From contig JAVHPR010000218.1 of NCBI GenBank assembly GCA_036170695.1, positions 1 to 45,506 on the forward strand: DNA of 45,506 nucleotides. The letters run 5' to 3'. Of the stretch, positions 11,625 through 14,609 are shown one piece after another. Made by a program: the position numbers and the translations under genes. The notes beneath the pieces are model-generated. The model did not search any database, was not told the origin of the DNA, and worked only from the letters and a program-made list of their open reading frames with translations. Each line of letters begins with the position of its first letter. The first letter of the stretch is position 1. This stretch comes from Bacteroidia bacterium. Lineage in GTDB: Bacteria > Bacteroidota > Bacteroidia > 2-12-FULL-35-15.

Positions 11625-13790
11625 ATGAAATATAAAAGACATACCGTTACCGCTGCATTGCCTTATGCAAACGGCCCTGTTCATATTGGTCATCTTGCAG
11701 GTTGTTACTTGCCGGCAGATATTTATGTACGTTATCTTCGTTCAAAAGGCGAAGATGTACTATTTATTTGTGGCTCGGACGAACATGGCGTACCCATTAC
11801 TATTAAAGCAAAAAAAGAGGGCATCACACCACAGCAGGTGGTTGATAAATATCATAAAATTATGGGTGATGCCTTTAATGAGTTTGGTATTTCCTTCGAT
11901 ATTTTTTCGAGGACATCCTCCAAAACACATCATGAAACGGCTTCTGAATTTTTTAAAACCTTATATGATAAAGGTGTTTTTAAGGAGGAAATAACGGAAC
12001 AATATTTTGATGAAAAGGCCAACCAGTTTTTAGCTGACCGTTATATTGTCGGAACTTGTCCAAAATGTGGTAATGATAGTGCTTACGGCGACCAATGCGA
12101 AAATTGCGGAAGTACACTTAACGCAACAGATTTAATTAATCCCAGGTCAACCTTATCAGGTGAAAAACCTGTTATGAGAAAAACAAAAAACTGGTTTTTG
12201 CCTTTGGATGCAATGCAGCCACAAATCGAAGCCTATATTGATTCTCATAAAGAGTGGAAAACGAATGTTTTCGGGCAATGCAAAAGTTGGTTAAATGCCG
12301 GACTTCAACCTCGCGCTATGACCAGAGATTTGGATTGGGGCGTTAAAGTGCCTGTTGATGGGGCTGAAGGGAAAGTTTTATACGTATGGTTTGATGCGCC
12401 TATCGGATATATTTCCGCAACGAAAGAATTATTTGAAGGAATGGAAAATGGAAAATGGAAAATGGAAAATGGAAACGCACATCTTCCATCAACCATTATA
12501 CATTCTACATCCAGAGATTGGGAGCTATATTGGAAAGATAAAGAAACAAAGCTGGTACATTTTATAGGTAAGGATAATATTGTATTTCATTGCTTAATAT
12601 TTCCTGCCATGCTGATGGCTGAGGGATCCTATATCCTGCCTGAAAATGTTCCTGCAAATGAATTTTTAAATCTCGAAGGAAATAAAATTTCCACCTCGCG
12701 CAATTGGGCTGTTTGGTTGCATGAATATTTACTGGAATTTAAAGATAAACAGGATGCGCTGCGCTATACGCTATGTGCAAATGCGCCTGAAACGAAGGAT
12801 AATGATTTTACTTGGAAAGATTTTCAGGCTAAAAACAATAATGAATTAGTTGCCATACTGGGTAATTTCATTAATCGCACCTTGGTATTGACACATAAAT
12901 ACTACAATGGAAAAGTGCCTGTTGCTGCGGAATATACAAAGTCTGACATTTTATTGCTGGAAGAAATAAGTAAATTTCCCACGAAAATTGCATCCAGTAT
13001 TGAACAATACCGTTTCCGGGAAGCTTTGGGAGAATTAATGAATCTGGCACGTTCAGGAAATAAATATCTGGCAGATAATGAACCTTGGATATTAATTAAG
13101 ACGGATGAAAAACGGGTTCAGACTATTATGAATTTATCCTTGCAAATTGTTGCAAATCTTAGCGTATTGATGGAACCATTTTTACCTTTTACATCCAAAA
13201 AATTAGGCGCAATGATCAATCTTAACAAGGATTTAAAGTGGAAGGATGCTACACGCACCGACCTACTTTTAGCAGGACATCAGATAAATCCATCGGGTTT
13301 ATTGTTTGATAAAATTGAGGATGAAATAGTAGATGAACAGGTTCTTAAATTAAAAAATTCTAAATTGATGAATGAAGCGGAATCAGGTAAATCAGAAGGA
13401 TCACTGAACGGAGCAAAAGGTGTGGTTCCAACTTCAAATGATGCTATCAACGTCCAAAAGGTAGACATTTCTTTTGAGGATTTCAATAAAATGGATATTC
13501 GTGTTGGAACTATTTTGGAAGCCGAACGTGTTCCAAAAACGGATAAATTAATGAAATTGTTAATCGATACAGGTATTGATATTCGTACTGTTGTTTCAGG
13601 AATCGCAGCGTATTATAAACCGGAAGATATCATCGGACAGAAGGTATCCATTTTAGCAAACCTTGCACCACGCAAAATTAAAAATATTGAAAGTCGTGGA
13701 ATGATTTTAATGGCGGAGAATAGTAATGGGGAGTTGTGTTTTGTCGCACCAACAAAAGATAATATGAATAATGGAGGAGTGATTAAATAA
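11625..13790 (+). CDS. metG: Methionine--tRNA ligase with a C-terminal tRNA-binding (Trbp111/EMAP-like) domain
   Basis: [14 protein letters not shown] (HIGH), zinc knuckles CPKCG...CENCG, a KISTS (KMSKS-type) loop, and C-terminal [22 protein letters not shown]. The ORF track starts at 11553, but those 24 codons translate the hairpin repeat; ATG 11625 ([17 protein letters not shown]) is the natural start. Confidence 0.93.
12441..12475 (+). repeat. Perfect heptanucleotide tandem array (atggaaa x5) inside the metG coding sequence
   Basis: Read directly: atggaaa|atggaaa|atggaaa|atggaaa|atggaaa. It is followed after 7 nt by a degenerate inverted copy at 12483-12512. Confidence 0.95.
13741..13790 (+). 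repeat. Direct repeat copy A (the last 50 nt of metG)
   Basis: ttgtcgcaccaacaaaagataatatgaataatggaggagtgattaaataa; 45/50 identical to 14560-14609. Confidence 0.9.
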
Positions 13791-13849
13791 TCCTGATCTG
13801 ATATTTTTTGCACTTCTCAAAAATGTGTGTTCTAACCCTAAATATTTAT

Positions 13850-13857
13850 TATCTTTG
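13850..13857 (+). promoter_or_regulatory. -7 promoter box (TAnnTTTG) of the TA cassette
   Basis: TATCTTTG lies 19 nt upstream of ATG 13876. Confidence 0.4.
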
Positions 13858-13875
13858 GAATAAATAACATTATCT

Positions 13876-14133
13876 ATGCAAATAATTAATCAAAATGCTC
13901 ATACTAATAATGAAGGGATCCTAAATATCAGCATTCCTACCCTATTGGTTGATACTGATGTAGAATTGGTGGTGGTTATCAGTCCTGCTATTAAAGCCGG
14001 GAAAAACAATCAGTTAACAAATGAGGAAATTCAATTGGTAGAAGAGCGTTGGCAAGAATATCAAAAAAATCCGAATACCGCCAAATCTTGGGAAGAAGTA
14101 AAAACCACCATCAATAAAAAGTATGGAATATAG
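13876..14133 (+). CDS. Putative addiction-module antitoxin
   Basis: 85-aa ORF that overlaps the downstream toxin gene by 11 nt. The C-terminal segment LTNEEIQLVEERWQEYQKNPNTAKSWEEVK resembles the 'putative addiction module component' antitoxin family. Confidence 0.7.
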   Translation: MQIINQNAHTNNEGILNISIPTLLVDTDVELVVVISPAIKAGKNNQLTNEEIQLVEERWQEYQKNPNTAKSWEEVKTTINKKYGI

Positions 14134-14422
14134 GATTGTAATTCTTCCTGATGCAACCATTGATTTCGAAAAATCCATTGAGTGGTACGACAATATTAAT
14201 CCTTCATTAGCAAAGCAGTTTATTGTTGAAATAGAAACCACCATTAGTTTTATTTCAAAAAATCCATTGTTGTTCCAATACGATTACGGTACATTTAAAT
14301 CAGTTAACACATCAAAATTCTTATTTAAAATAGTTTACAGAATTAATGGAGATGAAATTGTAATAGTTGCCATTTTTCATCATAAACGTAACCCCAAAAT
14401 ACTATATTCAAGAATAAAATAA
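14123..14422 (+). CDS. Type II toxin, ParE/RelE superfamily
   Basis: 99 aa; YRIVILPDATIDFEKSIEWY...LAKQFIVEIETTISFISKNPLLFQ...KIVYRINGDEIVIVAIFHHKRNP is the typical ParE/RelE layout. Confidence 0.8.
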   Translation: MEYRIVILPDATIDFEKSIEWYDNINPSLAKQFIVEIETTISFISKNPLLFQYDYGTFKSVNTSKFLFKIVYRINGDEIVIVAIFHHKRNPKILYSRIK

Positions 14423-14559
14423 TTATACTAAATTGCTGTTTCAAATCAATTCAGATATTATAAGAAAGTCAAATTCTATTCCTGTTAGGAATGCGTATAA
14501 ATTAATTCCCTAAATTATTTCATACTCGTTACCTATTGTTATAGAAATTACTCAAATAG

Positions 14560-14609
14560 TTGTCACACCAATAAAAGATAATATGAATAATGGGGGAGCA
14601 ATTAAATAA
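14560..14609 (+). repeat. Direct repeat copy B (displaced copy of the metG 3' end)
   Basis: ttgtcacaccaataaaagataatatgaataatgggggagcaattaaataa. In the metG frame it still reads [15 protein letters not shown]. Confidence 0.9.

Follow-up and report, generated by a model that had tools for sequence, protein, structure and literature searches.

Integrative elements such as e14 and phage 21 are known to enter the 3' end of a gene, icd in E. coli, and to supply a substitute end for it. Elements of this type bring along their own integrase and measure 10 kb or more. Another kind of gene-end displacement is found at the loci of rearrangement hotspot (Rhs), contact-dependent inhibition (CDI) and type VI secretion system (T6SS) effectors and their immunity genes. 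At these loci, an incoming module that is anchored in a conserved upstream gene shifts the old 3' end and the immunity gene downstream, and orphan arrays are generated in this way (PMC5361080). Homology-facilitated illegitimate recombination (HFIR) was proposed by Kirchberger et al. in 2017 for such displaced 3' ends and the downstream genes retained with them (PMC5361080, which cites Jackson 2009, de Vries and Wackernagel 2002, and Prudhomme 2002). The locus considered here lies on a stretch of 45,506 nt from a Bacteroidia bacterium (contig JAVHPR010000218.1 of assembly GCA_036170695.1), which was analysed at its full length and is called the window. In it, a predicted antitoxin-ParE toxin pair stands behind metG, the gene of methionyl-tRNA synthetase, and is bracketed by two copies of the last 50 nt of metG. 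A second pair, DUF6922-AbiEii, and the core gene dpp4 follow.

The duplicated gene end is a real and fairly ordinary recombination scar of modest interest, which arose from the stacking of cassettes at a core-gene hotspot. For its origin, we give somewhat better than even chances to a homology-anchored insertion into a locus that already carried DUF6922-AbiEii, brought about by HFIR or by a Campbell-type crossover and filtered by selection. The structure shows those features of 3'-end displacement that can be tested. The insert is colinear with a relative's chromosome (locus L173) from the anchor metG into the cargo, and the second repeat copy, together with the earlier cargo DUF6922-AbiEii, is colinear with two other relatives, L178 and L093. 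The features that would speak for an integrative element, namely an integrase and the same element at other places, were not found.

As at the Rhs, CDI and T6SS loci, a conserved upstream gene would act as the anchor, and a new gene end would be brought in along with cargo. Similarly, the old 3' end is moved back and kept along with the protective gene behind it, an integrase is not seen, and relatives hold alternative modules at the same locus. Unlike at those loci, the anchor is an essential aminoacyl-tRNA synthetase and not a polymorphic toxin, both ends encode the same function, merely 50 nt are orphaned, and the cargo consists of toxin-antitoxin pairs; the mechanism is a matter of deduction in both cases. 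With e14 and phage 21, the locus shares a housekeeping 3' end that is directly duplicated at about 90% identity, with the live gene complete and a pseudo-end at the far side of the insert. It differs from them in that the window has no recombinase, the cargo is below 1 kb, and the same cargo stands at the same locus in relatives free of any repeat. The features of the interval are as follows, in window coordinates:

11625-13790, plus strand: metG (methionyl-tRNA synthetase), the live gene; Pfam tRNA-synt_1g (1.4e-156), Anticodon_3 and tRNA_bind
13741-13790, plus strand: copy A, the 3'-terminal 50 nt of live metG with its stop codon; identical core at 13754-13774
13791-13875, plus strand: spacer of 85 nt with a Bacteroidota-type -7 box, TATCTTTG, at 13850-13857; its promoter-proximal part is conserved in L173
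13876-14133, plus strand: antitoxin of 85 aa, a putative addiction-module component; PF09720 and TIGR02574, both sub-threshold
14123-14422, plus strand: ParE/RelE-superfamily toxin of 99 aa; PF05016, 34 bits
14423-14559, no strand: AT-rich spacer of 137 nt (25% GC); copy B begins at its right end
14560-14609, plus strand: copy B, an orphan metG tip, 45/50 identical to copy A; core at 14573-14593
14611-14901, plus strand: DUF6922 gene, 96 aa; PF21956, 64.8 bits; starts 1 nt after the copy B stop codon
14865-15539, plus strand: AbiEii-type nucleotidyltransferase, 224 aa; PF08843, 43.8 bits (cut-off 22.5)
15577-17739, plus strand: dpp4 (S9 dipeptidyl peptidase IV), core gene on the right side of the interval; DPPIV_N (7.6e-81) and Peptidase_S9 (4e-52)

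A search for repeats in the window returned a single direct repeat of 50 nt, the copies A and B, with 45/50 (90%) identity and a spacing of 819 nt. The coordinates and the identity are those of the preliminary description of this DNA, which was made from the sequence without database searches, and its statement that three of the five differences are non-synonymous was borne out as well. The mismatches occupy repeat positions 6, 13, 35, 40 and 41, and the identical core measures 21 nt, AAAAGATAATATGAATAATGG. A 20-mer taken from the core occurs twice in the window, as against 0.02 occurrences expected from shuffles; the concern that the 50-mer might turn out to be a generic dispersed repeat could thus be set aside. 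By blastn-short, the repeat has an E-value of 2.8e-12. Local alignment returns exactly 50 nt, with the similarity breaking off sharply at either end, and the 137 nt that lie 5' of copy B match metG no better than shuffled sequence does (141 of 500 shuffles score as high). When read in the metG frame, copy A gives the 16-letter end of the live protein. Copy B gives 15 letters in the same frame, has in-frame stops upstream of it, and lies outside any open reading frame (ORF) there. The direct repeats bracket the insert, and one of them, copy A, completes the target gene metG, as is the case for att-type repeats.

Eight independent Logan contigs, which stem from at least seven sequencing runs, show the identical arrangement with 0 mismatches and pass through both copies without a branch. 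Because eight independent contigs agree, and because the 21-nt core is shorter than the assembler's k of 31, the repeat is not an artefact of assembly. It is therefore confirmed as real.

In order to place the arrangement among its relatives, metG was scanned in one genome per GTDB species and in JGI metagenomes, and the contexts of exact proteins were looked up. The closest metG relatives in these scans have, at best, 83-87% amino-acid identity, and a search with the metG C-terminus gave nothing closer than 81%. Look-ups with the exact antitoxin, ParE, DUF6922, AbiEii and dpp4 proteins returned only the window's own population, in the same arrangement. Four states of the interval were observed. 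In the empty state (state 0), metG is followed directly by dpp4 after about 80 nt (for example L001, L094-97, L101, L102, L104-106 and L109). In state 1, only the ParE pair is present: metG, a spacer, antitoxin-ParE and, after 11-26 nt, dpp4, without any second metG tip (L173 and L174). L172 also belongs here, though its contig begins just upstream of the ParE pair. State 2 has only DUF6922-AbiEii, with the metG TAA, 1 nt, the DUF6922 ATG, AbiEii and dpp4 in succession (L093 and L178); the P0008 contig shows the same state with a gap of 21 nt. Both cassettes together (state 3) are found in the window and in its own population alone.

The state-1 loci differ in their distance to the window. Identities of antitoxin, ParE and dpp4 are 80%, 76% and 70% for L172, 73%, 71% and 71% for L173, and 64%, 56% and 59% for L174, respectively. 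Homologues of the ParE pair were found four times. All three with a readable context lie at metG|dpp4, and the fourth contig is too short. The preliminary description had raised the prospect of meeting the cassette next to other genes; no such context came up, and in this small sample of four homologues the ParE cassette was not seen with the same repeats in another genome or at a secondary site, L173 and L174 having no second tip. Other cargo occupies the interval in L098, L099 and L108, which supports the site as a hotspot. In this clade of Bacteroidota, metG|dpp4 serves as a hotspot for small cassettes.

Some details of these loci may be added. The cargo of L108 is a secreted protein of 794 aa, which is partly seen in L098 also. 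In L099, an ORF of 180 aa begins 11 nt after metG. Neither has a Pfam match. The reading of the upstream fragment of L172 as an IS transposase was dropped, as Pfam gives it no support.

Which part of the arrangement was inserted can be told from the state-2 relatives. From upstream of metG through metG, the window (11561-13790) aligns with L178 (1492-3716) at 80.2% identity. From copy B through the end of dpp4, it aligns again (14566-17739 with L178 3673-6845), at 81.2% over 3182 nt and unbroken. L093 matches the window to the left and to the right of the insert in the same colinear manner; both relatives have about 81% nucleotide identity and are not conspecific. The spacer between AbiEii and dpp4 is homologous as well, with 37 nt in the window and 36 nt in L178. 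Furthermore, the junction TAA-N-ATGAATAAATTACC is common to copy B and to the real metG tips of L093 and L178. Relative to these two loci, the window has an insertion of 775 nt, and their single metG tip abuts DUF6922 just as copy B does. They are the single-copy empty site that the preliminary description had asked for, with the tip, 1 nt and then DUF6922, and they support the geometry it had proposed, in which DNA enters metG at its 3' end and brings a substitute for that end.

The insertion is thus the derived condition, and the divergence of the genes agrees with this. Amino-acid identity to L178 and L093 is 85% for DUF6922 and 82% for AbiEii, as against 86% for metG and 82% for dpp4. Since DUF6922-AbiEii diverges about as much as the flanking core genes, it appears to have descended together with the locus, which makes the ParE pair the later arrival. 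Against L172 and L173, synonymous divergence (pS) of the ParE genes is 0.45-0.65, below the 0.70-0.77 of the flanking core genes; for L172 taken singly, the values are 0.45-0.56, with 0.70 for dpp4. These values are not saturated, since the same genes reach 0.68-0.74 against L174. A pS below that of the flanks indicates that the ParE genes probably moved laterally and yet landed at the same locus. On its left side, the insert continues the order of a state-1 chromosome: window 13700-14429 aligns with L173 742-1490 at 74% over 757 columns, with the metG tip, the spacer, the promoter box and antitoxin-ParE colinear. The simplest history, as far as these alignments go, would be a state-2 ancestor that received the segment 13791-14565 along with a fresh metG end, copy B being the displaced old tip.

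The opposite polarity was also considered. In that case, the original order would have been metG-ParE-dpp4, and a later fragment would have carried the last 50 nt of a donor metG, DUF6922-AbiEii and the 5' region of dpp4. It would have been anchored by homology in dpp4 and joined illegitimately 3' of ParE, with copy B as a hitch-hiking piece of the donor. ParE-only loci do exist in the wider clade, DUF6922-AbiEii is clearly mobile and occurs in unrelated contexts, the 137-nt spacer could be old sequence from 3' of ParE, and metG gives a star-like tree for the nearest relatives. Nevertheless, the divergence of DUF6922-AbiEii from L178 and L093, its two junctions included, is the same as that of the core flanks (81-83% nucleotide identity), which suggests co-descent; the lower synonymous divergence of the ParE genes points to their being the more recent arrival; and ParE-only relatives have 11-26 nt, not 137 nt, in front of dpp4. 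This order of events is quite unlikely.

Colinearity with L173 also bears on a purely local origin, in which a staggered break or a replication error would have duplicated the host's own 50-nt tip around filler DNA, with drift to follow. The mismatches are few and scattered, and the 137-nt spacer has the look of filler. What was captured, however, is an intact toxin-antitoxin operon under selection, and relatives carry a homologous and colinear operon at the same locus. Taken together with an assembly artefact, which the eight contigs and the short core exclude, this explanation is very improbable.

In the homology-anchored insertion favoured here, the ancestor would have had DUF6922-AbiEii already placed 1 nt behind the metG stop codon, as is still the case in L178 and L093. 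The incoming fragment, probably from the chromosome of a relative, would have comprised a metG 3' end, the 85-nt promoter spacer, antitoxin-ParE and 137 nt of unplaced sequence. Its metG end may have served as a homologous anchor or crossover, and the other end would have been joined to the resident metG 50 nt before its stop codon. Such a joint could have been produced by HFIR or, alternatively, by a Campbell-type single crossover of a circularised fragment. The outcome would be a live metG with a complete end (copy A), and an old tip (copy B) that is shifted downstream and is still joined to DUF6922-AbiEii, in whose expression it may have some role. With metG being essential and its stop codon separated from DUF6922 by 1 nt, no neutral insertion point exists between the two. 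For this reason, the only survivors would presumably be those events that gave metG a new end and left the old tip in front of DUF6922. A circle bearing an attP site is not needed for this, because the left junction is colinear with L173, as is expected of a chromosomal fragment from a relative.

Several points weigh against this mechanism. The 137-nt spacer is without any match, and in the sampled ParE-only relatives dpp4 follows 11-26 nt after ParE. With dpp4 so close behind ParE, a fragment from a state-1 donor should carry 5' sequence of dpp4, and none is there. Neither a donor nor a conspecific pre-insertion haplotype was found in the searches described. Sliding identity of metG against L093, L092, L001 and L173 gives no breakpoint at this level of divergence. 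Where its frequency was determined, HFIR is a rare event (PMC5361080), and natural transformation is not established in this lineage. Since the metG tree is star-like, polarity is drawn from colinearity and equal divergence and not from a resolved phylogeny. Finally, three differences between the copies could be polarised by comparison with outgroups, and they form a chimeric pattern. The ancestral-looking residues are in the left arm of copy A (APT) and in the right arm of copy B (Ala), and the derived-looking ones in the left arm of copy B (TPI) and in the right arm of copy A (Val). A crossover within the 21-nt core, including a site-specific one, would yield the same pattern. At only three sites, it is explained equally well by drift, with changes in a non-coding orphan and one conservative change in the live metG.

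A site-specific crossover is the basis of a further explanation, which was also the sense of the preliminary description. Here, the ParE pair and its spacer would be either a minimal cassette or what is left of an island, and their attP would resemble the metG tip. The crossover, in the 21-nt core, would be carried out in trans by a recombinase of the tyrosine or serine type whose gene is elsewhere, so that copy A would be attL and copy B attR. The chimeric pattern of the three non-synonymous differences suits such an event, as do direct repeats with a perfect core and diverged arms, the empty site in L178 and L093, and toxin-antitoxin genes that apparently moved between lineages and always to the same locus. 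On the other hand, no recombinase is present in the 45.5-kb window; in agreement with what had been noted from the sequence, no recombinase or transposase Pfam domain was found in its ORFs of at least 120 aa. Behind the ParE pairs of L173 and L174, an attR is missing and there is no space for it. The cassette was never seen elsewhere or beside a recombinase, and it is absent from the plasmid, phage and IMG/VR collections. Moreover, a clean run of 21 nt is unremarkable, given five differences in 50 nt. Of the att-scar interpretation as a whole, the 3'-end geometry and the empty site have stood, and the free cassette and the island have not: copy B marks the old junction to the pre-existing DUF6922-AbiEii and not the outer end of a decayed island; this pair, 1 nt behind the copy B stop codon, had been overlooked. 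Site-specific integration in trans is, on balance, unlikely.

Orphan metG tips beyond the window bear on this as well. In a screen of 168 metG loci, two were found, both in Flavobacteriaceae, so that tip duplications recur in three Bacteroidota lineages, which would suit a specific site. In L063 (Maribacter zhoushanensis SA7), the orphan tip measures 104 nt with about 91% identity (10064 versus about 11571-11674), and in L073, a Flavobacterium metagenome-assembled genome, 76 nt with about 84% (10085 versus about 11609-11684). In both loci, the tip comes after an unrelated ORF for a secreted protein of about 475-480 aa. Identity between these two ORFs amounts to only 28%, and ORFs of this type are found sporadically downstream of metG in other Flavobacteriaceae. 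The tips differ in length and sequence, their mismatches are evenly spread and there is no common core, which counts against a site-specific event. The variable length and the scattered mismatches favour a homology-driven route over a fixed att site.

It can further be imagined that Bacteroidota have a dedicated attachment site in the very 3' tip of metG, at which mini-cassettes without a recombinase of their own are stacked in trans by the recombinase of a chromosomal or conjugative element. The cargo would then be ParE pairs, DUF6922-AbiEii pairs and the secreted protein of about 480 aa in Flavobacteriaceae, and each would bring its own mimic of the metG tip. Such an array would be integron-like, with the end of an essential gene as attI, and the three orphan tips (window, L063, L073) would represent attR sites. 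If true, this would define a new system of cassette capture; we regard it as a long shot.

A role of the metG tip as a phage attB site was tested and rejected. Three IMG/VR contigs carry metG. In one of them, L180, the integrase is on the 5' side; in another, the prophage L181, the likely att site on the integrase side is a tRNA-Arg(CCT) gene. This tRNA gene (909-981) stands between metG and a tyrosine-integrase-like gene (1123-2334), which lies about 220 nt 3' of metG. The sole prophage found beside a Bacteroidota metG thus probably uses the adjacent tRNA-Arg and not the metG tip, which is a further point against the site-specific explanation. No paper tying metG to an integration site was found in a search of the literature.

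The cassette itself has the organization of a type II toxin-antitoxin operon. The antitoxin is directly 5' of the toxin in the same orientation with an overlap of 11 nt, and the pair is kept in L172-L174. The toxin belongs to its family by sequence, with 34 bits for PF05016 (cut-off 23) and coverage of positions 2-89 of 89; against PDB sequences, it has a single weak match, ParE2 of 8c26, at an E-value of 0.59. The antitoxin remains below the thresholds of its models, with 21.8 bits for PF09720 (cut-off 23.3) and 25.6 bits for TIGR02574 (cut-off 31.9). With the ParE partners of L172-L174, it shares 64-80% identity, at a ratio of non-synonymous to synonymous change (dN/dS) of 0.09-0.12. The ParE homologues, of equal length and at the same locus, show 56-76% identity and a dN/dS of 0.18-0.21. 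These ratios (0.09-0.21 overall) suggest that the pair is under purifying selection, as is expected of the type II toxin-antitoxin system that it is predicted to be. It shares with ParDE and RelBE systems the small overlapping operon, the PF05016 toxin and purifying selection, and differs from them in its sub-threshold antitoxin.

In the 85-nt spacer, ATTTATTATCTTTGG is common to the window and L173. The box upstream of the antitoxin is a putative promoter, the evidence for it being its conservation in L173 and L174; over the window as a whole, the TAnnTTTG motif is not enriched (60 matches versus 68 expected). The 137-nt spacer behind the toxin has no similarity to metG, dpp4 or more than 170 related loci by blastn-short, tblastx and Smith-Waterman alignment against shuffles. 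Its right end is presumed to be an illegitimate or an att junction. The idea that this spacer is a decayed piece of metG, dpp4 or another gene was rejected, since its two weak tblastx matches to metG are not colinear.

The pair behind copy B consists of DUF6922 and an AbiEii gene that overlaps it by 37 nt. AbiEii is 82-83% identical to its counterparts in L093 and L178 and has a weak match to AbiEii in PADLOC. No AbiEi-type winged-helix antitoxin was recognized in front of it, as the upstream partner matches DUF6922 (PF21956) alone and nothing in PADLOC. The pair occurs also in unrelated contexts at 71-81% amino-acid identity, beside an IS110 transposase in L175 and after a different gene in L176. 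Because it is conserved in such contexts, DUF6922 looks like an uncharacterised antitoxin-type partner of AbiEii, and it is presumed to be protective. No paper mentioning DUF6922 was found in the literature search. As in the type IV AbiE systems (AbiEi/AbiEii), an AbiEii-family nucleotidyltransferase stands behind a small overlapping partner gene; unlike in them, the partner is DUF6922 and not the AbiEi winged-helix antitoxin, and the PADLOC match is weak. That the metG-like 50-mer might be a part of the DUF6922-AbiEii unit was rejected, as no 50-mer is found upstream of the pair in L175 and L176.

The stacking of small promoter-poor or self-promoted cassettes at one site is reminiscent of chromosomal integron arrays, such as the toxin-antitoxin cassettes of the Vibrio superintegron. 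Unlike in integrons, there is no IntI in the window, no attI and no imperfect inverted repeats of the attC type, and the repeat is the end of a coding gene. The sole inverted repeat (34 nt, 71% complementarity) has one of its arms within the antitoxin ORF.

The locus offers a clean and datable case of small toxin-antitoxin and abortive-infection cassettes that accumulate at one hotspot without visible mobile machinery. The duplicated end of an essential gene is here the price of inserting between two genes fused head-to-tail with a gap of 1 nt. The series from empty through ParE only and DUF6922-AbiEii only to both could serve as a test bed for HFIR in uncultured Bacteroidota. It also calls for caution, as duplications of gene ends are not always att scars.

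With regard to the window at large, no tRNA gene is present in it, and the metG-dpp4 interval has no Rfam match and no terminator. The metG protein is 80-87% identical to those of L092, L093, L178 and L001, and an alternative GTG start of its ORF at 11553 is possible. Within metG, a perfect heptanucleotide (AATGGAA) is repeated in tandem 5.1 times at 12440-12475 and encodes 11 residues. It sits in a lineage-variable insertion of about 25 aa, for which L178 has a different insert in the same place and L001 and L095 have none. Slippage of the 7-nt unit would cause a frameshift in this essential gene. Further downstream in metG, position 13118 is the exact start point of Logan contigs from at least five sequencing runs, one such contig being found in nine samples. 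This suggests a recurrent branch in the assembly graph, 672 nt upstream of the metG stop codon, which is possibly due to a co-occurring haplotype or to the boundary of a recombination tract.

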